DNA from: an uncultured Bacillota bacterium
Lineage (GTDB): Bacteria; Bacillota; Clostridia; Christensenellales; UBA1242
Direction: 5' to 3'
Length of the DNA: 64,000 bases
Assembly: GCA_946499835.1 (NCBI GenBank)
Contig: CAMMTJ010000003.1
Span: 55,460 to 119,459, forward strand
The position numbers were made by a program, and so were the translations under genes. The notes under the pieces are model-generated. The model did not search any database, had not been told where the DNA came from, and was given only the letters and a program-made list of their open reading frames with translations. Shown one piece after another: positions 7,292-49,377 of this stretch. Position 1 is the stretch's first letter. Every line of letters starts with the position of its first letter.

Positions 7292-7316
7292 ATATATGTT
7301 TTTATTTGGAGGAAAT

Positions 7317-10157
7317 ATGGCAGGAAGACTAACATTGAAATTAGACAATTTAGAAAAACTCGGCATTTCACTTGCAGAGAAAGAGGAAATCAAAAAATTT
7401 ATCAAAGACAACCCTCAGATCAAAGAAAGAGTAGATAAAATTCAAAAAGTTTTGAAAGACAAATTTTATCTTTCTGAAACAGAAGTGGAAAATTATATTT
7501 TGAAAATTTGTGAAGATGAAAGTGAAAAAGATATTTTCTTTTTCCAAGACATTTTTGAAGAATTTGAAAAGAATGACGTTGGAAGTTTTGATGCTGACGA
7601 GCGAAAAAAGCAAGCAAGGAATATCATTTTTGACGTTTATGACCTCTACAAATCCCAAACCAGAAAGGTTGGAGAAGATTTCATTGATTGTATGCGTGAA
7701 GCAAAAAGACTGGGCATTGATCCATTCCGTTTTGCCATAAAAACAAACATTGAAAAGGCAAATGGCGATAAGTTTCAACAAACTCTTGATTCTTTGACAG
7801 CAGAATATGATGCAATGTATTTCAAGAAAAACTCAGCAAAAAATGAGACAGAGATTTTGTTTTCTCATGACGAAACAAAAGCAATTCTTGAACAATGCAT
7901 GACACTTGCCATGCGACTTAATTGCGACCTTGTGGAATATGTTTTACTTACTCTTAGTGATCTTGCTTATGACAAAAAGAAAGGTGTTTTTTATGCAGAC
8001 GTGAGAGAATTTATAAGAAAAGCACCTTCAATTTTGCTTGCAAATCCTTTGAGCATCGAATCGACAATTTCAAAATTGAAAAATTATTATGAAAAAATAG
8101 GAAAAACACAAGAAGACCTTGTGCAGAGAGTTCTTCAAAGTCCTTCTGTGCTTTGTGCAGATAGCAAAGATATTGACAGCACGATAGATCTTTTAGCCAA
8201 AAACTATCAATCACTTATAAGTCAATTGCCTGAAAAAATTAGACGTGGCAAAGATGCAAGGGTTATGGCTGAGGCTTTTGCTTATGATGTGACAAATCTA
8301 TCACAAATCAAATCACTCAAAACTGAAAGTTTTGGAAAAATGCAAGAAATCCTTATCAAATACCTTGGCGCTGAAAATGCACTTACTTGCTTCCAAAATA
8401 TGGAAATATTAAATAAGGCGCCAGAAATTGTTGAATATGCACTAGCAGTCATTTCAACAGCGCCTAACAGCAAAGACCTTCGCGAAAAATTCGTCAAAAG
8501 CCCAAACACTTTCATGGAAGAGAAAAAAGATTTTTCTCAAAACAATTCTGACATTGAAGGCGGAGTGGGCACAGAACGCAAGACATTCTTTGCAAACAAA
8601 GAGACTTTGCCAGATGTAAACCTTTCAAAAGAAGAAATAGAAAATCTTAAAAACAAACTTTCAAAGAAAGACCTCAAAACATTGCAAGAAAAAATTGATG
8701 CCGAAAAAGAGCGTTTGGCAGAATTGCAACGTAAATATGAAGAGGAAAAAAGAAAACGCAGAGAAGAGAAAAAAGCGCGTGAAAAAGCAGAAAAAGAAAA
8801 AAGAAGAGCAGATAGAAAAGCAAACAAAGATAAAAAACCTTCTCAAATTATTGTTAATGCTCAAAATCTAAGTGAGCAAGAAAACAAACCTCAACTTAGT
8901 TATGAGGAAAAAATGAGAAAAAGGCTCTCTTATTTATGGCCTCCGAAAAAAGGTAAATTAAAATCAGGAGAGGTGGCACACAAAGATTTTGAAAATATTT
9001 ATGAACCTATTTTCAACGTACTTGATAGATGTGGTATTGAATTAGATTTGCCAAAATATAAGGATGTAAAAGAGATCTTTAAGAAATATGATAGTTTGGC
9101 AGTCGATTCAATGGTGGCATCGCAACTTTCAATTCTCTATGGACAATTTTTCAAATCTTTATTATCAGAAGGCGTGGAAACCCCTATAATCAGTTTGTTG
9201 AGTTCAACTGAGGATAACGAAATTAGAAAAATGTTTACAATGGCTTCCAATATTAAAGATAGCACAGGAAACTCTGATAAATATCTGATGAAAGTGAAAG
9301 AAACTGATACTTTGGCTGATTTGTTTATCAAATATGCAGATGGTGCTTATCGAGCGACAAAAGATGTTCAAGACAGGTTGTTTGACCTTGTTGATAAAAC
9401 GAATGAAATAAGTCAGGAACCAAAAAATAGCGAAAATATAACAGTGAATTTTAGACTTGTTGAAAGGTTCTTGAAAAATTATATCGAAGAATGTGACAAG
9501 CAGTTGATAGACCTCATTGGGCAGGAAAGATATGATCAATATTTTGATGAAGATACAAAGAAGATTAAAGATATAATTGAAAAGAAAGTGCTTTCAGATA
9601 AAAATATAAAACCTATCAACTCACCAGTTATTGTTTGTAAGGGATATGTTGCTCCTGCATTAGACTTTATCAAACTAATGGCACGGGAACTTAAAAGGGG
9701 AGACTATATTAAACAATTTGACAGAGTTGAAGATGAATATGCCGTCAGATTGCAAAGTAAATATCTTGATGCCATCGCAGAAATGACGGATGAAATCAAA
9801 AATAAAATAACATCTTTGCCTGGCGAAGGCAATATGCTGGTGCTTAAAGCAGAAGATGAGAAAGGAAAACCATATCGAGTTATTGCAATAAATGATGGAG
9901 AAGTGATAAAACAAAAAGAAAATGGAGAGGATAAAAAGATAACTGCATTCACGATCGCTGCTGTATCTAATGACCCAAATTATTTTGGAGATCCGCTTTT
10001 CTATCAAATTTCGAAAAGACCATCCCTTGTTACCATGGATAAAAATGGTAGTTTTGGTATAAGGGACGTGCTTGGCTTGGTTGATGTTGAAAATACAGAA
10101 TTGAAAATTGATGGATTTGATGTTCAAGGCAAGAAAGGTGATATGGGCATAAAATAA
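7317..10157 (+). CDS. large orphan protein, 946 aa: N-terminal helical repeats (tentatively mTERF-like), a central K/E/R coiled-coil, and an unassigned C-terminal half
   Basis: A long uninterrupted ORF with ATG at 7317 behind GGAGG. It has its own promoter and terminator. It occupies the tsf-frr gap where pyrH normally lies. No family recognised. Confidence 0.8.
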   Translation: MAGRLTLKLDNLEKLGISLAEKEEIKKFIKDNPQIKERVDKIQKVLKDKFYLSETEVENYILKICEDESEKDIFFFQDIFEEFEKNDVGSFDADERKKQARNIIFDVYDLYKSQTRKVGEDFIDCMREAKRLGIDPFRFAIKTNIEKANGDKFQQTLDSLTAEYDAMYFKKNSAKNETEILFSHDETKAILEQCMTLAMRLNCDLVEYVLLTLSDLAYDKKKGVFYADVREFIRKAPSILLANPLSIESTISKLKNYYEKIGKTQEDLVQRVLQSPSVLCADSKDIDSTIDLLAKNYQSLISQLPEKIRRGKDARVMAEAFAYDVTNLSQIKSLKTESFGKMQEILIKYLGAENALTCFQNMEILNKAPEIVEYALAVISTAPNSKDLREKFVKSPNTFMEEKKDFSQNNSDIEGGVGTERKTFFANKETLPDVNLSKEEIENLKNKLSKKDLKTLQEKIDAEKERLAELQRKYEEEKRKRREEKKAREKAEKEKRRADRKANKDKKPSQIIVNAQNLSEQENKPQLSYEEKMRKRLSYLWPPKKGKLKSGEVAHKDFENIYEPIFNVLDRCGIELDLPKYKDVKEIFKKYDSLAVDSMVASQLSILYGQFFKSLLSEGVETPIISLLSSTEDNEIRKMFTMASNIKDSTGNSDKYLMKVKETDTLADLFIKYADGAYRATKDVQDRLFDLVDKTNEISQEPKNSENITVNFRLVERFLKNYIEECDKQLIDLIGQERYDQYFDEDTKKIKDIIEKKVLSDKNIKPINSPVIVCKGYVAPALDFIKLMARELKRGDYIKQFDRVEDEYAVRLQSKYLDAIAEMTDEIKNKITSLPGEGNMLVLKAEDEKGKPYRVIAINDGEVIKQKENGEDKKITAFTIAAVSNDPNYFGDPLFYQISKRPSLVTMDKNGSFGIRDVLGLVDVENTELKIDGFDVQGKKGDMGIK

Positions 10158-10172
10158 TTAAATCATATAATC

Positions 10173-10202
10173 AAAAGAAGGGGTTTCCCTTCTTTTTTTT
10201 GT
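10173..10202 (+). terminator. rho-independent terminator after the 946-aa gene
   Basis: 10-bp stem AAAAGAAGGG (10173-10182) pairs with CCCTTCTTTT (10187-10196), with a GTTT loop and a trailing T run. Confidence 0.8.
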
Positions 10203-10384
10203 TTACAAGAAAGAATTTTTGTCATAAAAGATATTGTGGCATGGGTTTCTTTGCAGTTAGAGTCAATTTAACATGAAAAATTTCTCTTTTCTAACATTTT
10301 TCTTACCTCAAAAAGCAGAAGAAGAGCAAAATCATTTGCCAAAGAGAGGTCAAGTATTGTAAAATATCTTGCAAGGAGAGTTTT

Positions 10385-10951
10385 ATGAACGAAATGACAG
10401 AAGAAATCTTTGCCTCATGCAAAGAAGAAATTGCAAAAGCACTTAATCACCAAAAAAATGAATATCAACTTTTGCGTGCAGGAAGAGCAAATCCGCATAT
10501 CTTAGACAAGGTCTTTATTGACTATTATGGAGTGCCAACTCCAATCAAAAATATGGCAAGCATAACTGTGCCAGAAGCACGCATACTTGCTGTTCAAGTT
10601 TGGGATCAATCACAAGTAAAAAACGTGTCAAAGGCCATTGCTATGGCTGATCTTGGAATCACTCCAAGTGATGACGGCAGAGTGATAAGACTTGTTTTTC
10701 CTATTCTTACAGAAGAGAGAAGAAAGGAAATTGTCAAAACTGTGAAAAAGATTGCAGAAGAGACAAAGATCGCCACACGCGCAGCAAGAAGAGATGCTCT
10801 TGAAATGCTTAAAAGCATGCAAAAAGATGGCGAACTTTCTGAAGATGAACTTGCAACTTGTGAAAAAGAAGTTCAAAAACTTATTGACAATGCAGGCGAA
10901 ACAATCGACGAAGTTTGCAAGACAAAAGAAAAAGAGATTATGGAAGTCTAA
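10385..10951 (+). CDS. frr: ribosome recycling factor
   Basis: 188 aa with typical RRF motifs (LLRAGRANPHILDKV, VIRLVFPILTEERRKE). Confidence 0.95.
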   Translation: MNEMTEEIFASCKEEIAKALNHQKNEYQLLRAGRANPHILDKVFIDYYGVPTPIKNMASITVPEARILAVQVWDQSQVKNVSKAIAMADLGITPSDDGRVIRLVFPILTEERRKEIVKTVKKIAEETKIATRAARRDALEMLKSMQKDGELSEDELATCEKEVQKLIDNAGETIDEVCKTKEKEIMEV

Positions 10952-10988
10952 GTTATCCATTTTCTTGGCGATGTGAAAAGGGAGCGTT

Positions 10989-11693
10989 ATGCAAAAAGAA
11001 ATTATTAGTGACAAATCGCCAAAACATATTGCCATAATTATGGATGGAAATGGCAGGTGGGCGACAAAGCGTGGCCTGCCACGCAATTTAGGACATAAAG
11101 CAGGGATCAAGGCTATTGAAAGAACAATTGATGCAATGATCAAGTTTCAAATTCCAGTTCTCTCACTTTTCGCCTTTTCAACCGAAAATTGGAAACGTGA
11201 TAAAGAAGAAATAGATGGAATTTTCTCACTTGTGAGAGATTATCTTTCAGAAAATAAAGACTCATTTTTGAAAAAAGGTGTCCGTGTTGTGTCAATGGGC
11301 GACATTAAAGCCTTTCCAGATGACCTTGTATCTTCACTTGAAAGTGTCCAAGAAGAAACAAAAAACAATGACAAACTGACTCTTAATTTAGCGCTTAATT
11401 ACGGCGGTAGAGCAGATATTATTCGGGCTGTCAATGAAGTTATAAAAGACAAAAAGACAAAAATTGATGAAAAAGACTTTGAAAAATATCTTTATTCATA
11501 TCCTTTGCCTGATCCAGACCTTGTGATAAGGACAAGTGGCGAGATGAGACTTTCAAATTTTATGATGTATCAACTTGCTTATTGTGAACTTTATTTCACG
11601 CCTGTGTTATGGCCTGATTTTGGTGAAAAAGACTTGAAAAAGGCGATAATCGATTTTCAAAAGAGAGAACGAAGATTTGGAGGAAACAAATGA
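10989..11693 (+). CDS. uppS: isoprenyl transferase (undecaprenyl-diphosphate synthase)
   Basis: HIAIIMDGNGRWA and RTSGEMRLSNF are cis-prenyltransferase signatures. Confidence 0.95.
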   Translation: MQKEIISDKSPKHIAIIMDGNGRWATKRGLPRNLGHKAGIKAIERTIDAMIKFQIPVLSLFAFSTENWKRDKEEIDGIFSLVRDYLSENKDSFLKKGVRVVSMGDIKAFPDDLVSSLESVQEETKNNDKLTLNLALNYGGRADIIRAVNEVIKDKKTKIDEKDFEKYLYSYPLPDPDLVIRTSGEMRLSNFMMYQLAYCELYFTPVLWPDFGEKDLKKAIIDFQKRERRFGGNK

Positions 11694-12655
11694 AAACAAG
11701 AATTTACACATCAATCGGCATTGTGCTTGTCCTAGTGCTTGCCTTTGTTTTGAAAATGCTTGTAAGCAGTTATTTCTTTGATGCACTTATTTTTGCAATG
11801 GCATTCGTAGGCGCTTACGAAATGTCGAAGATTTTGTCAGAAATGGGCAAATATAACAACAAATATGTGATTATAAGTTTTCCTGTTCTATTTTTGGCAA
11901 TAAACTTGATAGGTGTCAACTTTGACACTGTCATTGGTTACTGGTCACTGCTTATAGATTTAGGCGTTGTGGTTGTCGCATTTTTGCTTGTATTCCTCAT
12001 TGGTTTGATGAGAAGAAAATCAACTGCAAAAGAGATGAAAGTAAGACGTTTGGAAGGGGACAAGCCTGCAAAATTTTGTGCGAAAAAGGCTTTGCACACA
12101 ATTTATGGAGCGCTCTATCCAACCTTTCTTCTTATGACAATGGTTTTTCTCAACCACTTTGATGAAATGGGCGGAATTTACACAAATATAGCAGACTTTG
12201 GAGGTTATTTCTCATTCATAGCACTGCTTTTCGCTTTTCTTATACCTTCTATTACAGACACCTTTGCTTATCTTACAGGTGGGCTGATTGGAGGTAAGAA
12301 ACTTTCTCCAAAAATCAGCCCAAACAAGACTTGGTCAGGTGCTATCGGCGGTCTTGTTTGGTGCACAGCCGTTTGTGTTTGCATTTATTTGATCTTAAAT
12401 GCAATTCCTACTTTCTATCACATTTTCAATGAGACTGGCTTTGCTTTTTGGCAGGTTCTTATCATTGCCTTTCTTGCTTCAATTGTGGCGCAAGCAGGCG
12501 ATTTGTTTGAGTCATTTATCAAAAGACGTGCTTCCGTCAAAGACTCAGGACGCTTTCTTCCAGGACATGGAGGAATGCTTGACAGATGCGACTCATATAT
12601 ATTTGTAACGCCACTTCTTCTTGTCGCATTTTCTATTCTTGCATGTGTTTTATAA
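11690..12655 (+). CDS. cdsA: phosphatidate cytidylyltransferase
   Basis: Polytopic membrane protein with the C-terminal CDS signature (SFIKRRASVKDSGRFLPGHGGMLDRCDS). Its start overlaps the uppS stop. Confidence 0.9.
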   Translation: MKTRIYTSIGIVLVLVLAFVLKMLVSSYFFDALIFAMAFVGAYEMSKILSEMGKYNNKYVIISFPVLFLAINLIGVNFDTVIGYWSLLIDLGVVVVAFLLVFLIGLMRRKSTAKEMKVRRLEGDKPAKFCAKKALHTIYGALYPTFLLMTMVFLNHFDEMGGIYTNIADFGGYFSFIALLFAFLIPSITDTFAYLTGGLIGGKKLSPKISPNKTWSGAIGGLVWCTAVCVCIYLILNAIPTFYHIFNETGFAFWQVLIIAFLASIVAQAGDLFESFIKRRASVKDSGRFLPGHGGMLDRCDSYIFVTPLLLVAFSILACVL

Positions 12656-12671
12656 ATTTTGTGAGGTGTGA

Positions 12672-13832
12672 GTGTATATTTTATATATTCTTCTAGCCAT
12701 TGTCATCCTTTTGTTTATGGTGCTTATTCATGAATTTGGGCACTATTGCATAGGACGAATGTTGCATTTCAAGATAACTGAATTTTCAGTTGGCTTTGGC
12801 AAGGCAATTTTTCAAAAGACCAACAAACGAGGAGAAAAGATTTCTCTTCGTATTTTTCCGCTTGGTGGTTATTGTGCCTTCGCAGGTGAAGATGAAGAAA
12901 ATGTCGATGATAAAGAAGCCTTTTCAAATCAAGCACCTTGGAAAAGAATATTGGTCTTTTTGGCAGGGGTAACTTTCAATTTTGTCACCGCTGTTATATT
13001 TTCCCTTATTTTACTGTGCACACTTGGCTATGATATACCACAGGTGACAAACTATAACCCTCTTGAAACGCATATTGCAGAGGAGGAATATCACTATAAT
13101 CCATCTGCTTCTCTCGATGCTCTTCAAGAAGGAGATGTCATTTTTGCAATCGATGGACAAAAAATTGATTTTGCTTTTGGCAAAAATTTCAACACGATTA
13201 TTCAAGAAGAACAAGCTGAAATTATTTCTTGGGTGAGAGAAAACTCAAATGAGGACGGCGTGCTCAATAGTGATGCAAACTTTGAAGAATTTCCAACTAT
13301 GACCTTTACGATAAGACGTGACGGACAAATGCAGGATGTGGAAGTTGCTGTTTTTCAAATTCAACAATATGGCACAGATGAGGATGGCAATCAAATAGTT
13401 GAGACGGCCTATTCATTCGGCATTTCTGCCAAAGCGTATGTTCATACTTTCTGGGAAGCACTTGACAGATGTATTCCATTTGCTTTTGGTCTTGCATGGG
13501 TTGTTTTGAAAAGTCTGTGGCTTCTTCTCACATTCCAACTTGGCATCGATGCGATTGGAGGGCCAATAACCACCATTGCAACCATGGCAACTGTTACTCA
13601 AATGAATGCAGGAAATCTACTTCTTCTCATACCTCTTATTTCAGCCAACCTTGCAGTGTTCAACTTATTGCCGATACCAGCACTTGATGGCTCACATGTG
13701 CTGTTCACATTGATAGAATGGATAAGAGGCAAGCCAATCAATAGAAGAGTGGAGAATATAATTCACTTTGTGGGGCTGGCGATCATGTTTGGGCTTGTGA
13801 TATTGATTGACATATTGCATTTTGTGTTGTAA
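12672..13832 (+). CDS. rseP: RIP (site-2) zinc metalloprotease RseP/RasP family
   Basis: GTG start behind GAGG. Contains HEFGH in TM1, a PDZ-like segment (LQEGDVIFAIDGQKI) and the C-terminal NLLPIPALDG motif. Confidence 0.9.
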   Translation: MYILYILLAIVILLFMVLIHEFGHYCIGRMLHFKITEFSVGFGKAIFQKTNKRGEKISLRIFPLGGYCAFAGEDEENVDDKEAFSNQAPWKRILVFLAGVTFNFVTAVIFSLILLCTLGYDIPQVTNYNPLETHIAEEEYHYNPSASLDALQEGDVIFAIDGQKIDFAFGKNFNTIIQEEQAEIISWVRENSNEDGVLNSDANFEEFPTMTFTIRRDGQMQDVEVAVFQIQQYGTDEDGNQIVETAYSFGISAKAYVHTFWEALDRCIPFAFGLAWVVLKSLWLLLTFQLGIDAIGGPITTIATMATVTQMNAGNLLLLIPLISANLAVFNLLPIPALDGSHVLFTLIEWIRGKPINRRVENIIHFVGLAIMFGLVILIDILHFVL

Positions 13833-13841
13833 AATATTTGC

Positions 13842-15380
13842 ATGGACGAACTAATGAGGGCGCTAAACAAAAAGTTTGGCGACAAATATTCATATTTGAA
13901 ACTCTTTGAAGTGGTGTATGACAAGAGAAGTCAAGTCTGCACCTTTACTTTTTTGTATCCTCATACAATTTCAGATATGGAGAGTGAGGACAGAAAAGAG
14001 ATTGAAAACTTTGTCAAAGAATATTTTTCTTTGAACGGAGATGTGAGGGTAAAATTTAAGAAGAGTTTTCTTGATGAAAAACTTATCAGACATGAAGTCA
14101 AAAACTTTTTTGAAGAAAAACATAAGTCTCTTTTGCCATATTTCAAAGAAGAGAATTTGTCGTCCACATTTGAAGGACTGGATGTAAAAATAACCTTAGA
14201 GCTTAACAAAGACCTTTTTGCCATGATTGATAAAGAGGATATGATAAAAGAGATGGTCATCTTTTTAAGTAAGCGTTTCATTGCAAACTTTGATATTTCT
14301 TTTGTGAAAAATGAAGAGGTTTTGCCAGATGAAGTGGTTATTGAAGAGGATATGTTGCCAAGCGTCAAAAGGACAATGCGCTATGAGGTCAACATTGAAG
14401 CCGACCTCATTGGCTCTGGTATTGCGCCAAAACCTGAATACATAAAGGATATCCAAAAACCAAAGTCGGCAGTAATTTTGGCTGGCGTTATTTCAGGTTT
14501 TACTCAAAAAACCTTTGTGCGTAAAAAAGGTAAAAAAGCAGGAGAAGAGGGTATATATTATACTTTCACTCTTAACGACGGAGACAAAATTGAGTGCATC
14601 TATTTTTGTGGAAAAACCAATCTCAAAAAAATGGAAAGTTTGACAGATGGGCATATGATTGTCTGCGTGGGCGATGTCAACACTGGCATTAGTGGAAAAT
14701 TGACTTATTACATCAAAAAAATTGCACTTGCAAGTCCAAAGATCGTTGTCAGTGCAATTGAAGAGCAGACATTTGAGAAACCTAAGAAAAGGAAATGGGT
14801 GGCAAGTGTTGAGCCTATTGTTACTCAAAGTCAAAGCAATTTGTTTGAGAATAAAGTTGTTTACAATGACAATATTATGACACACACCTTTGTGGTGTTT
14901 GACATTGAAACCACAGGTCTTGACCCTGAAACTTGTGAGATAACTGAAATTGGCGCTGTCAAGATCGAAAACGGAGTGATAAAAGAAAGGTTTTCATCTT
15001 TTGTGAAACCAACTGTGCCTATTCCAATGGAAGTGCAACTTCTTACTCACATAACTGATGAAATGGTCAAGGATGCGCCATCAATTGAAAACGTTATCGC
15101 AGACTTTTATGATTGGACACGTGGCTGTGTGCTGAGCGGATATAACGTTATTGGCTTTGACATGAAATTCATCAAAAAAGCAGGACAAAAATATAACTAT
15201 CGCTTTGACAACGATGTTGTTGACACCATGATTGTTGTGAGGACTTCTGGGCTGAGGTGTTCAAACTATAAACTTGGCACAGTTGTGTCAGCATTGGGGC
15301 TGACGCTAGAAGGGGCACATAGGGCTTACAACGATGCTCATGCAACGGCTCAGGTGCTTTTAGCATTGTCAAAAATATAA
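13842..15380 (+). CDS. PolC-like N-terminal/OB-fold region fused to a DEDDh 3'-5' exonuclease, with no PHP or polymerase core
   Basis: Exo I FVVFDIETTGLD, Exo II GYNVIGFDMKFI and Exo III HRAYNDAHATAQ are present. The upstream segment (AVILAGVISGF...YYTFTLNDGDKIECIYFCGK) is laid out like the PolC OB domain. The gene lies in the rseP-rimP slot usually held by polC. Confidence 0.8.
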   Translation: MDELMRALNKKFGDKYSYLKLFEVVYDKRSQVCTFTFLYPHTISDMESEDRKEIENFVKEYFSLNGDVRVKFKKSFLDEKLIRHEVKNFFEEKHKSLLPYFKEENLSSTFEGLDVKITLELNKDLFAMIDKEDMIKEMVIFLSKRFIANFDISFVKNEEVLPDEVVIEEDMLPSVKRTMRYEVNIEADLIGSGIAPKPEYIKDIQKPKSAVILAGVISGFTQKTFVRKKGKKAGEEGIYYTFTLNDGDKIECIYFCGKTNLKKMESLTDGHMIVCVGDVNTGISGKLTYYIKKIALASPKIVVSAIEEQTFEKPKKRKWVASVEPIVTQSQSNLFENKVVYNDNIMTHTFVVFDIETTGLDPETCEITEIGAVKIENGVIKERFSSFVKPTVPIPMEVQLLTHITDEMVKDAPSIENVIADFYDWTRGCVLSGYNVIGFDMKFIKKAGQKYNYRFDNDVVDTMIVVRTSGLRCSNYKLGTVVSALGLTLEGAHRAYNDAHATAQVLLALSKI

Positions 15381-15480
15381 TTTTTAAGGGCTTTTTTGTT
15401 GGTTTTGGCAATATTTTCTGTAAATAACTTTTGAAAAAGGGAAAAAGTCTTTATTTTTGGGGAGTTTTTGAAAATTATTG

Positions 15481-15509
15481 TTGATTTTTATTTTTACATT
15501 TGATATAAT
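15481..15509 (+). promoter_or_regulatory. promoter of the rimP-nusA-infB operon
   Basis: TTGATT (15481-15486), a 17-bp spacer, then TGa-TATAAT (15501-15509). An 8-bp leader hairpin GGGAGTGA/TCACTCCC follows at 15530-15556. Confidence 0.55.
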
Positions 15510-15582
15510 AAGATTGACTAGATGTGGCGGGGAGTGAGCAGAAAATGTTCACTCCCTGCTTCATAAGTAAAGGAGGAAAACT

Positions 15583-16044
15583 TTGGCAGGAAAAGTTAAA
15601 ACAATTTGCGAAGAAAAAATTTGCCCTATCATTGAAGAAATGGGCTATGAGGTCGTAGAAGTGGAGTATGCCAAGAAAAGCGATGGCATGAACTTGACTT
15701 TCTATATTGACTGTGACAAAGGTGTTGAGATTGACGATTGTGAAAAGGTGTCAAAAGTGATTGATCCGATCATCGAAGAGTTGAACCCAACAGATGACCA
15801 GCCATATATTTTGAGCATAAGTTCGCCAGGCATCGACAGACCACTCAAAAGTGAGCGTGATTTCAAAAGAAACATTGGAAATGAAATTTCAATCACTTTG
15901 TTTTCAAAAATTGACGGAAAGAAAAAGTTTGACGGAACGCTTAAAAGTTTTTCACCAGAGGATGTGACAATCACATCAAATGGCAAAGATATCACTTTGC
16001 AAAGAGATAAAATCGCACACATCGTGCCAATAATCAAATTTTAA
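15583..16044 (+). CDS. rimP: ribosome maturation factor RimP
   Basis: TTG start 6 nt after GGAGG. Typical RimP pattern (LTFYIDCDKGVEIDDCEKVSK, SSPGIDRPLK). Confidence 0.9.
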   Translation: MAGKVKTICEEKICPIIEEMGYEVVEVEYAKKSDGMNLTFYIDCDKGVEIDDCEKVSKVIDPIIEELNPTDDQPYILSISSPGIDRPLKSERDFKRNIGNEISITLFSKIDGKKKFDGTLKSFSPEDVTITSNGKDITLQRDKIAHIVPIIKF

Positions 16045-16058
16045 GGAGAACAACAAAA

Positions 16059-17237
16059 ATGATAAACAAAGACTTTTTTCAAGCACTTGAAGATTTGCAA
16101 ACAGAAAAGAAAATAGACAAGCAGGTGTTTATTGAAACACTTGAACAAGCACTCACATCTGCATACAAAAAAATGTATGGAGAGGCAAAGTCGGCAATGG
16201 TTCGTCTTGTGCCTGAGAAGAACACAATCAAAGTATATTCTTACAAAACTGTTGTTGATGAAGTGACTGACCCAGACAAAGAGATTTCACTTGCTGAGGC
16301 AAAACTTATCAAGAAGTCTTACAAAGTGGGTGACCAAGTTTTGAGCGAGGAGTCAACAAAAGATTTTGGAAGAATTGCCGCTCAAACAGCAAAACAAGTT
16401 GTTATGCAAAAACTCAAAGAAATGGAAAGGGCTATCGCAGTCAGCGAACTTTCTGAAAAAGAAGATGAACTTATGACAACCATCGTCAAAAGAATTGACA
16501 ACGGCACTGTTTACGTTCAACTTTCATCTTCTCACACAGAAGGCGTTATGCTTCCAAGTGACCAGATCCCTGGTGAAAAATATACAGTTGGTCAAAGAAT
16601 AAAGGTTTATGTGAAGAAAATCAAAGATTCTTTCAAAGGTCCACAAATTCAAGTTACAAGAAGCAACATTGGCTTTGTGCGTAAACTCTTTGAACTTGAA
16701 ATTCCAGAAGTTGCAAGTGGTGATGTTGTGATCAAAAATATCGCCCGTGACCCAGGCAATAGAACAAAAGTTTCACTTATGCCAACAAAACCAAATATTG
16801 ATCCAATCGGCACTTGTGTAGGTTACAGAGGACAACGTATTGACACAATCGTTTCTGAAATGAATGGTGAAAAGATTGACCTTATTGAATATAGTGATGA
16901 CCCACTTGAATATATCGCAAGAGCGCTTAGCCCTGCAAAAGTGCTTTCTGTTGAAACAAATGAAAGTTTGATGGCATCAAGGGTTATTGTTCCAGATGAT
17001 AAATTATCTCTCGCTATTGGCAAAAATGGGCAAAATGTTCGTCTTGCTGCAAGACTTACAGGCTGGAAGATTGAAGTGAAGAGTGAAAGTTCAGTTGCAA
17101 ACACGACTGCAAAACAAGAACCTGAGTATGAACTTACCGAACTCAATGAAGATGATGCTTTCCAATCACTTGAAGACCTTGAAGAACTTGAACCTGTAAG
17201 CATGGATGAAGAAGAAACAAATCCTACTGATGAATAA
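16059..17237 (+). CDS. nusA: transcription termination/antitermination factor NusA
   Basis: NusA N-terminal domain, S1 domain and two KH domains (GTCVGYRGQRI, AIGKNGQNVRLAARLTGWKI). Confidence 0.95.
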   Translation: MINKDFFQALEDLQTEKKIDKQVFIETLEQALTSAYKKMYGEAKSAMVRLVPEKNTIKVYSYKTVVDEVTDPDKEISLAEAKLIKKSYKVGDQVLSEESTKDFGRIAAQTAKQVVMQKLKEMERAIAVSELSEKEDELMTTIVKRIDNGTVYVQLSSSHTEGVMLPSDQIPGEKYTVGQRIKVYVKKIKDSFKGPQIQVTRSNIGFVRKLFELEIPEVASGDVVIKNIARDPGNRTKVSLMPTKPNIDPIGTCVGYRGQRIDTIVSEMNGEKIDLIEYSDDPLEYIARALSPAKVLSVETNESLMASRVIVPDDKLSLAIGKNGQNVRLAARLTGWKIEVKSESSVANTTAKQEPEYELTELNEDDAFQSLEDLEELEPVSMDEEETNPTDE

Positions 17238-29508: not shown

Positions 29509-29895
29509 ATGAGAAGAGATGCAAGGGTGGTTGCCTTTCAAATTATCTTTTCAAAAATGTTCGCATCTGACCAAATAGAAGAACCTTTCTTTGACAGTCT
29601 TAAAAAGGAAAGCGATATTTCTTTTGCAAAATCAGTGGTTGAAAACTTTTTGGAACATAAACAAGACCTTGATGAGCAAATAAAAGGCGGACTTGTCGGT
29701 TATCAGATAGATAGAGTTTACAAAGTTGATCTTGCACTTTTGTATTTGGTTTTGACAGAGGTTGAATTTCTTGACACACCAAAACAAGTGGCAATCAATG
29801 AGGCTCTTGAAATTGCGAAGAAGTTTTCAACTGACAAAAGCCCAAAATTTCTAAATGGTGTGCTTTCATCAGTACTTCGAGGAAAAGATAAATAA
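29509..29895 (+). CDS. nusB: transcription antitermination factor NusB
   Basis: RRDARVVAFQIIFS N-terminus and C-terminal FLNGVL motif. Confidence 0.9.
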   Translation: MRRDARVVAFQIIFSKMFASDQIEEPFFDSLKKESDISFAKSVVENFLEHKQDLDEQIKGGLVGYQIDRVYKVDLALLYLVLTEVEFLDTPKQVAINEALEIAKKFSTDKSPKFLNGVLSSVLRGKDK

Positions 29896-31070
29896 TGCAA
29901 GCGATAAGCGTTTCACAACTTGGAAACTACATCAAAAATATATTCGATGCGGAAGAACTTCTCCACAACATACCTGTTGTTGGAGAAGTTTTTGGTGTAT
30001 CTTTATCGCGAAATGTCATTTATTTCTCTCTTAAAGATGAAAATGCAACTTTGCAATGTGTTTGCTTTTATCCAGCACTTGCCGACTTGATTGAAGAAGG
30101 TGCAAAGATAATAGCAACTGGCTCTCCAAACTATTATGTCAAAGGTGGCAGACTCAACTTCAATGTTGTGAAAGTTGAAAAGGCAGGCATAGGCAAACTT
30201 TATGAAGAGTTTTTGAAGATGAAAGAAAAACTTGAAAAGGAAGGGCTTTTTGACATAGCACACAAAAAATCTATGCCAGAGAACATAAGACGAATTGGCG
30301 TGATAACCTCGCGTGAAGGTGCGGTGATTCAAGATATAAAAAATGTGGCATGGAGACGCAATCCTTCACTTGATATCGTTTTGTTCAATACCAAAGTTCA
30401 AGGAAAGGATGCAGAAAAAGAGATAGCCCGTGCAATAGACCTTATGTCTGATTATGATGGTATTGATGTCATTATGGTGGCAAGAGGCGGAGGCAGTTTG
30501 GAAGATCTTTCGGCATACAACACTGAGACTGTGGCAAGGGCGACATACAACTGTCAAAAACCAATCGTGTCAGCAGTTGGGCATGAGACTGACTTTACAA
30601 TAATAGACTTTGTCAGTGACCTTCGTGCTCCAACACCGTCAGCGGGTGCAGAACTCTTGTCCGTCAATATGGAAGAGAGAAAGAAATCGCTTCAAAGTCT
30701 TGTCCAAAACTTTTTGAGAACAAGTGACAACTTTGTTGAAAACAAAAGGGCGCAGGTGAAAGAACTCGGCAAGGACAGTATTGCAAGTTTTGATAAAAGA
30801 CTGGTATATCAAACAAACAATACAACCAAAAAAGCAGATCTCTTTATTCAAAGGTATAGCGATTTTATAAATCAAAACCTATACAATATTGGAATTATGG
30901 AAACAACATTAAAAAAACTTGATCCACGTTTGATTTTAGCGCAAGGATATGCTAGAATTGAACAAACGGAAAAACCTGTCTTGTCAGCAAAGAGCGTTGA
31001 CTTAGAGAAGAATATAAACATTATCTTTGCAGATGGCACGGTTAAGGCAAAACCTATAAAGGAGGAATGA
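29895..31070 (+). CDS. xseA: exodeoxyribonuclease VII large subunit
   Basis: OB-fold N-terminus (ISVSQLGNYIKNIFD), IGVITSREGAVIQD and ARGGGSLEDL motifs. Confidence 0.93.
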   Translation: MQAISVSQLGNYIKNIFDAEELLHNIPVVGEVFGVSLSRNVIYFSLKDENATLQCVCFYPALADLIEEGAKIIATGSPNYYVKGGRLNFNVVKVEKAGIGKLYEEFLKMKEKLEKEGLFDIAHKKSMPENIRRIGVITSREGAVIQDIKNVAWRRNPSLDIVLFNTKVQGKDAEKEIARAIDLMSDYDGIDVIMVARGGGSLEDLSAYNTETVARATYNCQKPIVSAVGHETDFTIIDFVSDLRAPTPSAGAELLSVNMEERKKSLQSLVQNFLRTSDNFVENKRAQVKELGKDSIASFDKRLVYQTNNTTKKADLFIQRYSDFINQNLYNIGIMETTLKKLDPRLILAQGYARIEQTEKPVLSAKSVDLEKNINIIFADGTVKAKPIKEE

Positions 31071-31071
31071 T

Positions 31072-32769
31072 ATGAGAATAAGTCATATGGTAGGAGAAAG
31101 AACAAAGGAGACACCAGCAGGGGCTTCTGTCAAAAGCCAAATATTTTTGATGCGTGCAGGCTACATCAAACAAGTCAGCAACGGCATTTACACTCTTTTG
31201 CCTCCTGCACAAAGGGTAAGCAAAAAAATTCAAGCAATTATCAGAGAAGAAATGGACAAAATTGATGGACAAGAAGTGCTTTTCCCTGTCGTTATGCCAA
31301 AAGAACTCTGGGAAAAGAGTGGCAGATATTATTCTATCGGCGAAGAAATGGTTAGATTTAAGGATAGATCAAACAGAGATATGCTTCTTGGAATGACACA
31401 TGAAGAGGCTGCCGTTCATGCTTGCCAGAATATAATCAAAAGTTATGACCAGTTGCCTCTTATGATTTATCAAATTCAAACCAAGTTTAGAGATGAGGCA
31501 AGACCAAGAGCAGGACTTATAAGAGTGAAAGAGTTTACCATGAAAGACGCTTACTCTTTCCACACATCAAATGAAGATTTGGAAGAATACTATTCTCGTG
31601 CCTTTGATGCTTACAACCGCATATTCCAAAGAGTGGGAATGAAAAACTTTATATCTGTTAAGTCTGACAACGGTATGATGGGCGGAAATTGTGCTCACGA
31701 ATTTATGCTTCTTACAGACATTGGTGAAGATAGTATCGTCATTTGCCCACATTGCGATTATAAATCAAACATGGAAGTGGCTGTTTCAAACTATGCAAAA
31801 CCAAAGTTTGAAGATAGTCCAATCAAGGAAGTGTTTACAGGCGAGGCAAAGAGTATTGAGGAAGTTTGCGCTTATCTCCATTTGCCAGCAGAGCAAACGA
31901 TGAAAGCAGTATGCTATGCTGTCGTTGGCGATGACAAGGAAACTGTTGTTGCTTTTGTTAGAGGTGATAAAGAGGTCAATGAGGCAAAACTGAAAAAGGT
32001 TGTTGGCAAAGAAATTGCAGTCAAGGATCTTGAAGGCTCAGGACTTGTTAAAGGAAATATCGGCATAGTTGGACTTGGACAAGAACATATGACTATCATT
32101 GTTGACAAGTCGCTTGAAGGTATGCAAGGATTATGCTGTGGAGCAAATAAAGAAGAATATCACCTTGTTGGAGTAAATCTTGCAAGAGATGCCAAGATTG
32201 ACAAATTCTATGACATTGCAAAAGTCAAAGAAGGGGAACTTTGCCCAATTTGCGGTCAACCTCTCAAAGTTGAAAGGGGAATTGAGATTGGAAATATCTT
32301 CCAACTTGGAACAAAATACACAAAGTCAATGGGCATGACTGTGACTATGCCAGACGGAAGTCAAATCAACCCAATTATGGGCTGTTATGGAATTGGTGTT
32401 GGCAGATGTCTTGCTTCGGTGGCGGAGGAACTGTCAGATGATAAAGGTCTTGTATGGCCAATGTCAATCGCACCATGGCAAGTATATCTTTGCCCACTTC
32501 GAAACGATGATGAGAAGGTTTCTGCGGTGGCAGAAGAACTTTATAAATCACTTTCAGAAAAATTTGAAGTGCTTTATGATGATCGTCATGTTTCAGCAGG
32601 AGTGAAACTCACTGACAGCGAACTTATGGGTATTCCAGTAAGAGTTGTTGTAAGTCCAAGATCTCTTGCTCAAAATCAGGCTGAAATCACTTTGCGTGCA
32701 AGCGGTGAAAAGATCATGGTTGACCTTAAAGATCTTGAAAGTGAACTTTCACGCCTTACAAAGATATAG
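31072..32769 (+). CDS. proS: prolyl-tRNA synthetase (bacterial type with INS editing domain)
   Basis: Class II motifs (FRDEARPRAGLIRVKEFTMKDAYSF, GCYGIGVGR). Starts 2 nt after xseA and ends 8 nt before xseB. Confidence 0.95.
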   Translation: MRISHMVGERTKETPAGASVKSQIFLMRAGYIKQVSNGIYTLLPPAQRVSKKIQAIIREEMDKIDGQEVLFPVVMPKELWEKSGRYYSIGEEMVRFKDRSNRDMLLGMTHEEAAVHACQNIIKSYDQLPLMIYQIQTKFRDEARPRAGLIRVKEFTMKDAYSFHTSNEDLEEYYSRAFDAYNRIFQRVGMKNFISVKSDNGMMGGNCAHEFMLLTDIGEDSIVICPHCDYKSNMEVAVSNYAKPKFEDSPIKEVFTGEAKSIEEVCAYLHLPAEQTMKAVCYAVVGDDKETVVAFVRGDKEVNEAKLKKVVGKEIAVKDLEGSGLVKGNIGIVGLGQEHMTIIVDKSLEGMQGLCCGANKEEYHLVGVNLARDAKIDKFYDIAKVKEGELCPICGQPLKVERGIEIGNIFQLGTKYTKSMGMTVTMPDGSQINPIMGCYGIGVGRCLASVAEELSDDKGLVWPMSIAPWQVYLCPLRNDDEKVSAVAEELYKSLSEKFEVLYDDRHVSAGVKLTDSELMGIPVRVVVSPRSLAQNQAEITLRASGEKIMVDLKDLESELSRLTKI

Positions 32770-43109: not shown

Positions 43110-43712
43110 ATGGAAAGCATAATGAATTTTTTCAGTGATCATTTTTATGATTTAGTCTGGCTCGCAACAATAATTGTGGCAATGATTCCCACGCTCGAAA
43201 GCAAAATCGCCATTCCTTTCGCAATGAGTGTAAGCGTGTGGGGTGATCTTGCTCTTCCTGCATGGCAAGCCTGCATTTTCGCATTTATAGGCTCAATGTT
43301 GCCAAGTTATTTTGCCTTGTTTTGCGGAAGAAAAATCAAAAAACACACAACAGGTTTTATATCTGAAAAGATTATGACCAGATATAGCGTCAAAACATCT
43401 TTGCTCGACAAACAACAAAACAATTTCAAAAAATATCTTCTTCTCGCAGGTTTCGTAGCTGTTCCATTGCCTCTAACAGGCGTCTGGACGGGCAGTTTAA
43501 TTGCAGGACTGAGTTCTTTGAAAACTGGATACTCATTGCTCGCAATTATGATTGGCGCACTCATTTCTTGCATAGCCATAACTCTGCTTTGCACTCTGCT
43601 TGAAAATTCAATAGGTTATGTGCTTATAGTTTCAATTTTAATTGTTATCGCATTTTTGGTTGTTGATTTGCTAGGAATTATTTTCAAACAATTTAGAAAA
43701 AAACGTGCTTAA
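43110..43712 (+). CDS. small multidrug export protein family (COG2426-like) membrane protein
   Basis: Pattern PTLESKIAIPFA...VPLPLTGVWTGSLIA is typical of this family. The start is uncertain: 43110 or 43122 (see the uORF finding). Confidence 0.7.
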   Translation: MESIMNFFSDHFYDLVWLATIIVAMIPTLESKIAIPFAMSVSVWGDLALPAWQACIFAFIGSMLPSYFALFCGRKIKKHTTGFISEKIMTRYSVKTSLLDKQQNNFKKYLLLAGFVAVPLPLTGVWTGSLIAGLSSLKTGYSLLAIMIGALISCIAITLLCTLLENSIGYVLIVSILIVIAFLVVDLLGIIFKQFRKKRA

Positions 43713-43742
43713 AAAAAGTCCCTTTTGAAGGGGCTTCTTTTT
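43711..43742. terminator. bidirectional terminator between convergent genes
   Basis: 7-bp stem GTCCCTT (43718-43724) pairs with AAGGGGC (43728-43734), flanked by an A7 run on one side and a T-rich run on the other. Confidence 0.6.
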
Positions 43743-45342
43743 ATTTCCAATATTTTATCAAAATGTATCTCTTTATGTAATATCTCAAAGGAAGCAAAAT
43801 CAAAGTTACTCCAATAGGAAGAATAAGCGTTGTTGCGTAAAGAGAAAAGTTTTCACTGTTCATACCAAAGGCGAAATTAAGACCAATAACAACACCGCAA
43901 ACAAGGGCTGTCATAAGCCAAACAAGCCACTGACTTTTCATAGGTGCTGGCTCCCAACTTGTGTATTTTGCATTGTTGTATGCTTTGACTGCAACATCAA
44001 TTAAGTATAGCAAAGGCAACACAATATACAAGAAAGTTGTTGAGGTGTTCAAATTGTTTGTTGAATATAAAATTGCAAACAAGACTGCTGAGAAGACTGC
44101 AAGTCCCAAGAAGGTGAACAGGGTGGTGATAAGCATAAGTTTGTTTGTGTTGTGACTTATCTTTGACTTTTCTTTTGAATAAGATTTGAAAGAAAGGTTT
44201 TGTTTTTTGTAATATTGAGACAAATCTTCATAGTCTAGCATATAGTTTTCGCTTTGCTCATCTTCACTTGCTCGGCTCTTTGAATAAATCCTAGAAATAA
44301 TTTCCTTGTGAGATGGATCAATATTGATGTCACGCTTTGGAGCAGGGAGTTTTTGCTCTCTTTGTGAAATTGGCTCAATTTTAAGTCTAGGAGGCTCAAT
44401 CATTTTAGCTCTGCCAATACTGTTTGAAGAAACACGCTCAGTAATAAGCACACCGTCATCCGGCTTCTCTTCAATGTGGCTTTCTTCTTGTCTGTCTCTG
44501 TTCATTCTAAAAGCAAATTGTTCATCAGTGAGACGAGAAGAGTATTTTGCCTTGTTTTCAAGCAGTGAATTTTTGAACTCTTCCACCTTTGCTTTTGTTT
44601 TTTCATCAGAAACTTGAAGTGGATCTTCTGGCGCAGTCATAGCAATTTGATCTTCTGCAAAACTTCTCTTTTTGCGATAACGTGTCATATCTTTTGAAAT
44701 ATCATAAAGTCTCTTGTTGTATTGTTCTGCTTGCAGGCGATCTTCTTCGCCCAAAACAACTGCATCACTCTTTGCATTTGTTTCCTCTTTTTCAGGCAAT
44801 TCTGTATCCCTTTGTGATGCGGTGATAGGGGAAGGTTCGCTCTGTCTCACTTCTTCAATAGGTTCTTCCTTAATATTTTGCTCTGCAAATTGATCCTGAG
44901 AGGCACTTTCTTCTTGTTTCGCAGGAGATTCACTAAGTGATGAAAAATCAAAGAAATCACTATTCTCTTGCTCTGTCTCATCTTGCTCTTGGAGAGCAGT
45001 CTCATTATTTTGAGAAGGTTTTTCTTCTGCGTTAAAATCTCTAAAAACATTGAAATGATTGCGTTCAAACTCTTCTTTAAGTTCTTGATACACAGTGCGT
45101 CCTTTTTCAGTTATACTGTAATATCTTCTGTTTGGGCCAAGTTCACTGCTTTGCATATAAGAAGAAACCAGCCCTTGTTTTTCCATTCTGGTTAAGTTTG
45201 AATAAACACTTGGTTTTTTCAGGTCTATGTTGCCATTTGAACGTGTTTTAATCTCTGTGATTATGTCAAGACCGTAAAAATCACGTTCTAGCAGGCAATT
45301 TAATATTAAAAATGATAGTTGACCTTTTGCATAAATCTCCAT
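43741..45342 (-). CDS. membrane-anchored PadR-family regulator: N-terminal PadR winged helix, ~300-aa acidic disordered linker, C-terminal 4-TM domain
   Basis: The N-terminus LSFLILNCLLERDFYGLDIITEI...SVYSNLTRMEKQGLVSS...RRYYSITEKG is a PadR-type wHTH. Four hydrophobic helices fall in the last ~150 aa. SD GAGGGA is present. Confidence 0.8.
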   Translation of the reverse strand: MEIYAKGQLSFLILNCLLERDFYGLDIITEIKTRSNGNIDLKKPSVYSNLTRMEKQGLVSSYMQSSELGPNRRYYSITEKGRTVYQELKEEFERNHFNVFRDFNAEEKPSQNNETALQEQDETEQENSDFFDFSSLSESPAKQEESASQDQFAEQNIKEEPIEEVRQSEPSPITASQRDTELPEKEETNAKSDAVVLGEEDRLQAEQYNKRLYDISKDMTRYRKKRSFAEDQIAMTAPEDPLQVSDEKTKAKVEEFKNSLLENKAKYSSRLTDEQFAFRMNRDRQEESHIEEKPDDGVLITERVSSNSIGRAKMIEPPRLKIEPISQREQKLPAPKRDINIDPSHKEIISRIYSKSRASEDEQSENYMLDYEDLSQYYKKQNLSFKSYSKEKSKISHNTNKLMLITTLFTFLGLAVFSAVLFAILYSTNNLNTSTTFLYIVLPLLYLIDVAVKAYNNAKYTSWEPAPMKSQWLVWLMTALVCGVVIGLNFAFGMNSENFSLYATTLILPIGVTLILLPLRYYIKRYILIKYWK

Positions 45343-45360
45343 AGTTTTCCCTCATAATTG

Positions 45361-45390
45361 ATTATACGACATAAAAGAAAGGCAAGTCAA
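45361..45390 (-). promoter_or_regulatory. promoter of the PadR-fusion gene
   Basis: On the minus strand: TTGACT (45390-45385), an 18-bp spacer, then TATAAT (45366-45361). Confidence 0.5.
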
Positions 45391-45423
45391 ATGAAATAAC
45401 TTAATTTATAAATAAATTAAAAA

Positions 45424-45448
45424 CACTAGTATGCACGACATACTAGTG
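45424..45448. promoter_or_regulatory. perfect 10-bp inverted repeat, candidate operator in the divergent promoter region
   Basis: CACTAGTATG-cacga-CATACTAGTG. It lies 8 bp upstream of the -35 of the DUF45 gene and 34 bp upstream of the -35 of the PadR gene. Confidence 0.5.
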
Positions 45449-45455
45449 GAAAAAC

Positions 45456-45484
45456 TTGCAATAGTTTTCCAAAAATGATATAAT
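45456..45484 (+). promoter_or_regulatory. promoter with predicted leaderless start for the DUF45 peptidase gene
   Basis: TTGCAA (45456-45461), a 17-bp spacer, then TGa-TATAAT (45476-45484). The ATG at 45491 is exactly 7 nt after the hexamer and has no SD. Confidence 0.55.
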
Positions 45485-45490
45485 ATAGTT

Positions 45491-46102: not shown

Positions 46103-46111
46103 AAACAAAAT

Positions 46112-46138
46112 GGCCACAAAAATGTGGTCTTTTTTTTA
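46112..46138 (+). terminator. rho-independent terminator after the DUF45 gene
   Basis: Stem GGCCACA (46112-46118) pairs with TGTGGTC (46123-46129) and is followed by T8. Confidence 0.8.
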
Positions 46139-46509
46139 ATTAGTTTTTTTTAACCATTTTATCAAAGACGCCTTCATAATAGAGGGTGATACAAGAGGAT
46201 TTATGGCAAGATAAGAGGGTGGCGTCCTGCTATCCTTAGTCTCAAAATAAATTTTCCAACAAATCGTAGTAAAAAATAGGGGAGTTTTCAAGTAGGGAAA
46301 AGAGGAGTGAAGCATTTTAAGAGTTGTTTTATAGAGTTTTGTTAGAAGAGAGAGTTAAAAAAATGCTGTGAGGAGAAGAAATAAAATATAAAGAGGATGT
46401 CTCATTAAAAAAGAGGAAAAGGGGCTCCATTTGAGAGCAAATTGGGAATAGAAAAGATAAGAGGGAAGCCTTTTTTAATGAAAAATTCCACAAATTTCTA
46501 CGCTTATAT

Positions 46510-46539
46510 CTATGCGTAAAAGACAGGTTTTACGCATAG
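46510..46539. repeat. perfect 12-bp inverted repeat with a 6-nt spacer
   Basis: CTATGCGTAAAA (46510-46521) - gacagg - TTTTACGCATAG (46528-46539). The 5' arm overlaps the stop of a 13-codon mini-ORF (46478-46519). Confidence 0.8.
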
Positions 46540-49371: not shown

Positions 49372-49377
49372 ATGAAT

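Follow-up and report, generated by a model that had tools for sequence, protein, structure and literature searches.

A PolC derivative without a polymerase in the polC slot of uncultured gut Clostridia, a candidate stand-alone proofreading exonuclease

In the low-GC Firmicutes, PolC counts as the essential leading replicase, with a domain architecture that is viewed as compact in evolutionary terms. What, then, does a clostridial genome encode when the usual place of polC is taken by a much shorter gene? The question is raised by a stretch of 64,000 nucleotides on contig CAMMTJ010000003.1 from an uncultured bacterium (hereafter the window, meaning the whole stretch that was analysed). Gene X (13842..15380, + strand) occupies this place and encodes a protein of 512 amino acids (aa), in which an N-terminal domain pair (NTD), an OB fold, a linker and an exonuclease (Exo) domain follow one another. 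The product is derived from PolC and has no polymerase. Judging from its domains and motifs, we assign a probability of roughly 0.55 to the reading that X acts as a stand-alone, clamp-tethered 3′-5′ proofreading exonuclease that retains the replisome-docking modules of PolC.

The open reading frame (ORF) comprises 512 codons, from an ATG start to a TAA stop, as in the sequence-only reading from which this study set out, and the strings cited there for the exonuclease are all present (FDIETTG at aa 353, GFDMKF at 438 and HRAYNDAH at 493). The C-terminal region (aa 350–512; 14889..15377, + strand) had been taken for a complete DEDDh 3′-5′ exonuclease, which is borne out by Pfam RNase_T (PF00929; aa 351–506, E 3e-37), the sole Pfam domain in X. 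Exo I lies at 14895-14918, Exo II at 15150-15170 and Exo III at 15318-15341, and the catalytic residues D354, E356, D440, H493, and D498 are invariant in 28/28 sequences. The protein ends 12 aa past Exo III, with the C-terminus ...LALSKI. X scores 103 bits against TIGR00573, the dnaq subfamily domain, which is above the cutoff of 71.5. Its best NCBIfam match is the exonuclease region of the PolC profile NF001688 (profile positions 381-584 of 1445), and the best PDB relative of its Exo domain is the exonuclease of Thermotoga maritima PolC (2p1j, E 1.4e-39). As a whole protein, X stays far below the cutoffs of both PolC profiles, with 152 bits against 873 for NF001688 and 141.8 bits against 1043 for TIGR01405. 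X is a PolC derivative that carries a DnaQ/epsilon-family exonuclease domain, not a member of the PolC family.

The first 300 residues had been described as laid out like the N-terminal and OB domains of PolC, with a beta-rich start, and the three strings quoted from this region are also found (AVILAGVISGF at aa 210, FTLNDGDKIECIYFCGK at 242 and MIVCVGDV at 272). The proposed layout was recovered by profile-profile comparison. With deep profiles built from 252 family and 139 PolC N-termini, the NTD of X matched the PolC NTD with 97% probability (E 1.1e-10) over 138 colinear columns, and a reversed-sequence control gave 0.4% probability. Taken singly, lobe 1 (aa 1–76; 13842..14069, + strand) matched PolC NTD columns 13-74 (86%, E 5.5e-6) and lobe 2 (aa 77–160; 14070..14321, + strand) matched columns 84-155 (95%, E 5e-8) in hhalign. 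The two lobes also match each other (89% probability, E 2e-6), in keeping with earlier work (ref. 18 of PMC3919608, as cited there), in which the PolC NTD consists of two related domains with a distant similarity to tau domain V. An interaction of the PolC NTD with the clamp loader has been proposed (PMC3919608). The OB-fold domain (aa 183–300; 14388..14741, + strand) is supported by PF01336, which was detected in 16/19 members (best E 1.8e-7), by hhalign to the PolC OB (98.9% probability, E 3e-17), by Foldseek and by blastp. The full X protein is colinear with PolC columns 1-572 in the profile-profile alignment, and a blastp alignment with a genuine PolC (L045) spans OB through Exo. The sequence-only reading had allowed for an N-terminus unlike that of PolC; profile similarity was found instead.

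In an AlphaFold2 (AF2) model of aa 1–300, with a predicted local distance difference test (pLDDT) score of 88.7, the start of the protein is alpha/beta rather than beta-rich and forms two lobes of the abbab type; lobe 1 runs helix-strand-strand-helix-strand (pLDDT ~85-92). When this N-terminal model was compared with the PDB by Foldseek, it retrieved OB folds, including that of PolC (3f2b_A; root-mean-square deviation 3.0 over 104 columns), and for the NTD lobes only PrgH ring-building motifs. Foldseek found no PolC NTD counterpart because the NTD is absent from every solved PolC structure (PMC12592400). Among 19 members, the Pfam PolC N-I and N-II families (PF14480 and PF11490) gave no match even at E<=10; a profile of the N-terminal 300 aa matched nothing among all PDB sequences, and the family profile matched no PDB chain outside the exonuclease. 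These sequence-to-profile failures agree with the poor conservation of PolC NTDs (PMC3919608).

Is X a real protein, or a polC gene damaged in assembly or in evolution? In a search of 5.8 billion proteins, clustered at 90% identity, full-length homologues of 505-524 aa with 48-98% identity were found in >120 clusters. Those that bear a name are annotated only as "ribonuclease H-like domain-containing protein" or "hypothetical protein" and come from metagenome-assembled genomes (MAGs) of Clostridia. A scan of species-representative genomes added full-length relatives at 27-57% identity in at least ~27 genomes; among the matches listed, all come from MAGs of uncultured Clostridia of the gut or rumen, which were obtained in several independent studies. 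Gene lengths in the family are 507-548 aa, apart from a lone 592-aa call that probably reflects an upstream start, and all members stop <= ~25 aa past Exo III. The profile of the N-terminal 300 aa, run against 1.84 billion representatives of 50%-identity clusters, retrieved 423 clusters (273 at E<=1e-10). None of the best 150 of these 423 is a PolC-length protein with an X-like N-terminus, and all are <=577 aa. The same N-terminal 300 aa gave zero matches in phage and plasmid collections. Altogether, >250 full-length homologues share one architecture. Two of the longer relatives carry insertions of ~60 aa, P0152 (573 aa) between NTD and OB, where the inserted segment is low-complexity or charged, and P0250 (577 aa) within the OB region; both otherwise retain the architecture of X, together with a QxxLF-type motif (QNFMF and QQNIF, respectively).

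An artefact or remnant, that is a misassembled, frameshifted, intein-split or pseudogenised polC, would account for nothing but the unusual length, and its probability is close to nil. Misassembly, which the sequence-only reading had named as something that would refute it, and frameshifting are ruled out by the same ends in >250 sequences from independent assemblies and studies, hundreds of assemblies in all. Readthrough or a frameshift into a polymerase ORF was likewise rejected, as no polymerase-like ORF lies downstream in any frame, and so was a split intein, since the variable basic tail of 12 aa past Exo III holds no conserved Cys/Ser junction and no intein-like extension. A decaying pseudogene is excluded by the invariant catalytic residues and by dN/dS ratios of 0.05-0.09. 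For the two pairs of X genes with unsaturated synonymous sites, the ratio is 0.054 and 0.086 overall, and by domain it is 0.035-0.10 for the NTD, 0.07-0.14 for the OB and 0.012-0.03 for Exo. X evolves under purifying selection.

In a tree of NusA and IF-2, limited to X-bearing genomes in which both proteins were usable (n=25), the 25 X-bearing genomes are monophyletic with a bootstrap of 100/100 against 16 PolC-bearing Clostridia, and the depth of the X-bearing clade is about that of between-order divergence. This single clade indicates that X arose by one ancient event and was then inherited vertically. Among the matches listed, no whole-genome shotgun prefix is common to X- and PolC-bearing loci, an observation that carries no weight.

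The sequence-only reading held that the PHP and polymerase regions are missing, and neither Pfam nor tblastn nor hidden Markov model (HMM) searches gave a hit to them in the window. Pfam detects no C-family polymerase core (Pol3, PF07733), no HhH module and no PHP domain in X; a PHP-C is likewise missing, since only 12 aa follow Exo III. With an HMM built from the part of PolC beyond Exo, no hit at E<=10 was obtained in the window and ~30 family loci (±10 kb), nor with an HMM of PHP-N, and tblastn with five PolCs matched only the OB and Exo regions of X itself in the same set. When the post-Exo module of L065 (Caldicoprobacterales, the closest PolC-bearing genome) was used as the query, it retrieved ordinary PolCs at 67-84% identity. 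In the blastp alignment with the L045 PolC, the ~85-aa PHP-N segment, including HxH and DH, is mostly gapped. A 1192-aa ORF at a distant X-bearing locus (L028) was tried as a DnaE candidate and rejected, being an SMC protein.

Could the polymerase reside in a second gene? Clostridia normally have PolC and DnaE1, and a few have DnaE1 only (PMC3919608, PMC12926913). The main rival to our reading is that X is half of a two-gene PolC, whose other part, a polymerase module of the form PHP-Pol3-HhH that may or may not have an NTD and OB of its own, is encoded elsewhere and has X as an obligate subunit. PolCs without an exonuclease, ~6% of the total and all in Clostridia or Negativicutes (PMC3919608, PMC12926913), are the mirror image of X, being built as NTD+OB+PHP+Pol3+HhH in ~1190 aa (PMC3919608), and the strongly kept docking domains of X would suit a continued PolC-type partnership. 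X has lost the PHP-N half as well, however, which makes a simple fission unlikely, because a PHP-C fragment would need PHP-N; any PolC-type partner would then need to lack Exo and possess the whole PHP, a state that requires duplication and reciprocal loss. No polymerase gene is adjacent to X in ~30 diverse loci, no relative of PolC length is found in the best 150 of the 423 N-terminal profile hits, and X has a clamp motif of its own (see below), as expected of an independent clamp client. We consider a two-gene PolC unlikely on this evidence.

The location of X points to polC in the same way as its domains do. Upstream, X is preceded by frr, uppS, cdsA, and rseP, and downstream it is followed by rimP, nusA, ylxR, and infB; the order uppS-cdsA-rseP-X-rimP-nusA-infB is found at every family locus with enough flank. 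Ordinary Clostridia from the same scan carry a PolC of 1320-1550 aa inside identical flanks, which upholds the earlier assignment of X to the polC position. On grounds of position and profile matches, X is the positional orthologue and a truncated descendant of polC. The upstream neighbour rseP (12672..13832, + strand), an M50 site-2 protease (Pfam Peptidase_M50, E 4.7e-57), has the same position in relatives. The expected rseP/proS flank is thus only half present, as rseP adjoins X and proS (prolyl-tRNA synthetase with an editing domain; 31072-32769) lies 17 kb downstream, directly after xseA (29895-31070). In Bacillus, proS adjoins rseP and polC. The genes dxr and ispG are absent from the annotation of the entire 64-kb window, as had been stated, and are also missing from the rseP-rimP interval of all X-bearing loci.

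The downstream neighbours raise the further thought that X might be an exoribonuclease of the RNase T or oligoribonuclease kind, working 3′-5′ with rimP, nusA, infB, rbfA, nrnA, and truB. PF00929 covers RNases too, and X stands immediately upstream of this ribosome-maturation operon. Its position was inherited from polC, though, and is therefore uninformative on function; the best matches of the domain are DNA-polymerase exonucleases, with oligoribonuclease marginal (E>0.2); and rimP (15583..16044, + strand) has its own promoter-like site and Shine-Dalgarno sequence. A role in RNA metabolism appears highly improbable.

Between the OB fold and the exonuclease, where PolC has the N-terminal half of its PHP, X has a flexible linker (aa 301–349; 14742..14888, + strand; pLDDT 35-73). 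The AF2 model of full-length X (mean pLDDT 85, predicted template modelling score 0.43) shows confident domains joined by flexible linkers, with aa 302-316 below 50. Within the linker lies QSNLF (aa 331–335; 14832..14846, + strand), a sliding-clamp-binding-type motif of the form QxxLF. Residues 311-340, with pLDDT 52-73, stand between two confident domains, so that the QSNLF segment is predicted to be exposed and flexible. The strict pattern Q-x-x-[LMIVF]-F was sought in the 60 residues before Exo I of 254 family sequences and was found in 218 of them, with near-variants in 27 more, and it is placed exactly 22 residues N-terminal of Exo I in 184 of the family sequences. The chance expectation is 0.012 per linker (0.00021 per residue elsewhere in X proteins).

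Clamp-binding motifs follow the consensus QL[S/D]LF or, in its looser form, QxxLF, in which positions 1, 4 and 5 are critical; PolC carries a C-terminal QLSLF, and DnaE1 an internal QxxLF (PMC12309361). The clamp motifs predicted for DnaE1 include QGNLF and QASLF (PMC3919608 Table S1), which are of the same types as that in X. Of the 37 PolCs that we examined, most have a Q[LIVM]S[LM]F-type motif at the C-terminus, and a clamp motif in the linker before Exo is present in none. The PolC clamp motif was thus lost with the polymerase, and a motif of the same kind is kept near the nuclease, an arrangement as in E. coli epsilon. Contact between a proofreader and the clamp has a precedent (Jergic 2013, as cited in PMC12309361). 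We infer from the recurrence and placement of the motif that X may bind the sliding clamp through QxxLF.

Just upstream of the motif, most members conserve "V-[FVY]-P-[EK]-x-[YF]" (consensus "HKQVVFPE.."), at aa 316–330 of X (14787-14831); in the X of the window it is degenerate (VASVEPI). In the full-length profile alignment it aligns with "AFPEAY" of the PolC PHP, a match without statistical support when taken alone. It may be a PHP-N relic or a second short binding motif. The linker as a whole was also considered as a vestigial PHP-N, with "H-K-Q" corresponding to "H-T-Q", "VFPE" to "AFPEA" and "K..Y" to "KVIYG". This alignment is suggestive, and the idea was set aside as unsupported, the similarity of the linker to PHP-N not being significant in hhalign (E 0.1).

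A clamp-binding nuclease need not be a proofreader, and X might instead be a DNA repair or processing nuclease associated with the clamp, acting for example on 3′ ends or flaps at stalled forks, in mismatch repair or in the maturation of Okazaki fragments. QxxLF is common in repair proteins, which make up many of the clamp clients (PMC12309361), the pairing of an OB fold with a DEDDh nuclease suits the processing of single-stranded 3′ ends, and clostridial DnaE1 generally has an active PHP proofreader (PMC12926913). Against this, all the modules that were kept come from the replicase PolC, including an NTD proposed to contact the clamp loader, the gene has kept the ancestral place of polC in every genome examined, and the neighbourhood shows no link to repair genes. 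We judge a repair nuclease to be rather improbable, somewhat more so than a two-gene PolC.

We return to a clamp-tethered proofreader as the favoured reading and propose the following course of events. In the ancestor of the clade, a single event would have stripped the protein of its PHP domain and polymerase core, together with HhH and the C-terminal motif for clamp binding. The NTD pair, which would serve in clamp-loader docking, the OB fold, which would bind single-stranded DNA, and the DEDDh exonuclease would have been left behind. A new QxxLF clamp-binding-type motif would later have arisen in the linker before the exonuclease, and the beta sliding clamp would now hold X at the primer terminus. 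There, like E. coli epsilon, X would remove misincorporated nucleotides for the remaining C-family polymerase, be it DnaE1 or a PolC-type enzyme encoded elsewhere. Docking to the clamp loader, proofreading in trans and the identity of the partner polymerase are what we infer from the retained modules. In a more far-reaching version, no PolC polymerase is left anywhere in the clade, DnaE1 is the only replicase, and a clamp-bound proofreading subunit is all that remains of PolC; we advance this tentatively, as the odds are somewhat against it.

Several points weigh against a separate proofreader. If a full-length PolC with its own exonuclease exists elsewhere in the genome, an additional proofreader would be less needed. 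The PHP proofreading site is usually intact in clostridial DnaE1, which may thus need no help (PMC3919608, PMC12926913). The X family has none of the C-terminal alpha-binding peptide by which epsilon is characterised, and QxxLF could serve to bind some other partner, or it could be left over from PHP-N as a structural relic. In the phylogeny of the Exo domain that had been suggested as a check, a neighbour-joining tree gives the family clade a bootstrap of 34 and leaves its branch point relative to the PolC exonucleases ambiguous. A proofreading subunit, a remnant of polC relocation and a distinct repair nuclease had all been offered in the sequence-only reading; the evidence favours the first and cannot settle the choice.

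How is the gene expressed? The earlier observation that X has no Shine-Dalgarno sequence and is preceded by TGTAAAAT at 13828-13835 was confirmed, and this element contains a -10 box. The -10-like TAAAAT (13830..13835, + strand) forms its core and overlaps the rseP stop codon TAA (13830-13832), while the -35-like TTGACA (13807..13812, + strand) lies inside the rseP coding sequence (codons ..aTT GAC Att..). The resulting arrangement, TTGACA-17-TAAAAT-6-ATG, is the best sigma-70-like site in 10000-16200, with 11/12 positions matched, and only 9 nt (aatatttgc) separate the rseP stop from the ATG of X. The arrangement is kept in all loci of the subclade with >=43% identity to X (15/15). The distance from the first base of the -35 box to the ATG is 35 nt in 13 of these 15 loci and 36 and 37 nt in the other two; the -10 box has a one-base variant in two. 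The Asp codon within the -35 box is GAC in 15/15, against 33% GAC usage in the same genes. With the -10 box ending 6 nt before the ATG, transcription is expected to start at or next to the A of the start codon. From this spacing we propose that, in the subclade of the window, X has its own promoter within the last codons of rseP and is probably transcribed as a leaderless mRNA. Of the more distant loci, L026 shows a perfect version, TTGACA-16-TATAAT-6-ATG, set in sequence that is otherwise unrelated, and L020, L029, and L033 have a normal Shine-Dalgarno sequence before X.

The interval between X and rimP contains an extended -10 promoter-like site (15481-15509) and a very stable hairpin in the 5′ region of rimP (15526-15559; ~-30 kcal/mol including a few flanking bases), and rimP itself has a TTG start with a strong Shine-Dalgarno sequence (15569-15576). 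Rfam returned nothing in or around X, nor for this hairpin, the region of which is possibly a leader element of the rimP-nusA-infB operon. Two distant X genomes carry insertions between X and rimP, namely a tandem pair of genes for BspA-type leucine-rich-repeat proteins (617 and 629 aa), running on the opposite strand, in L028 (L028:11482-15390) and two small ORFs in L026 (L026:11604-12570).

Further features of the window were noted away from X. The longest ORF in the window encodes 953 aa (7296-10157, + strand) and lies between tsf and frr, the usual place of pyrH, which is not there. It has no Pfam match at E<0.01, and ORFs of similar size (919-948 aa), also without a Pfam match, are found in the same place at L087:3484-6306, L007:3614-6409, L015:3693-6452, and L020:542-3388. 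It looks like a clade-specific large protein. Forty + strand ORFs stand in a row (65-43712) and are followed by mostly - strand genes, with the GC skew flipping sign in this region; a low-GC stretch (0.30) is found at 46-47.5 kb, and a tyrosine recombinase/integrase at 49372-50427. The region ~43700-47500 could be a replication terminus or a mere boundary of operon orientation. The GC and AT skews of the window and the strand bias of its genes were tried as indicators of whether PolC is present. The skews largely follow the coding strand, and according to the literature strand bias is not strictly coupled to PolC.

Thus, a deep and species-rich clade of gut Clostridia carries a polymerase-less PolC in the ancestral slot, under strong selection and with a newly acquired clamp-type motif, and these bacteria must arrange their replication or proofreading in another way. 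Should the polymerase really be absent, their set of replication enzymes would differ from the assumed PolC and DnaE1, polymerase loss would represent a natural route from a replicase to a stand-alone epsilon-like proofreader, and a deep Firmicutes lineage would be without the target of PolC-directed antibiotics. If an Exo-less PolC is encoded elsewhere, these genomes would hold a natural two-gene PolC, in which the roles of NTD, OB and exonuclease are separately testable. Either way, X bears on the role of the PolC N-terminal domains and on proofreading in systems with both PolC and DnaE1, which the literature describes as uncharacterised. Ibezapolstat is a PolC-targeting antibiotic, and X also bears on the expected spectrum of drugs of this type against commensal gut Clostridia.

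We found no description of the X architecture in the searchable literature, and surveys of the bacterial C-family polymerases from 2014 and 2026 describe the X family in neither case. The closest known system is PolC itself (NF001688/TIGR01405; 3F2B, 9QPC), with which X shares the order of N-terminal pair, OB and DEDDh exonuclease as well as the slot from rseP to rimP-nusA. In contrast to PolC, X has no PHP, no palm, thumb or fingers, no HhH and no C-terminal QLSLF, and comprises 512 rather than ~1320-1550 aa. E. coli DnaQ (epsilon) resembles X in being a separate DEDDh polypeptide with a clamp-type motif in a flexible segment by the nuclease (Jergic 2013, as cited in PMC12309361). In epsilon, however, the motif follows the nuclease and is succeeded by a C-terminal peptide that binds the PHP of alpha, whereas X has the motif before the nuclease, no C-terminal tail, and an NTD and OB in addition. 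The two are independent in origin, since X derives from PolC.

Other rearrangements of C-family replicases provide more distant parallels. DnaE1 with an N-terminal DnaQ fusion (PMC3919608) also has a rearranged link between proofreader and polymerase, but there by fusion instead of separation, and it shows no relationship to the NTD and OB of X. The split DnaE of cyanobacteria, which is joined through a split intein, likewise presents a replicative polymerase as a shorter N-terminal gene; X differs in having no intein fragment and in being without the PHP-N half that a spliced product would need. Lastly, the Exo-less PolCs of Negativicutes and some Clostridia (such as that of Acidaminococcus, 1191 aa; PMC3919608) are, like X, derivatives of PolC that arose through the loss of modules in Firmicutes with PolC and DnaE1. 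They have lost the exonuclease only, whereas X has kept the exonuclease and lost the polymerase, so that the two forms are complementary.

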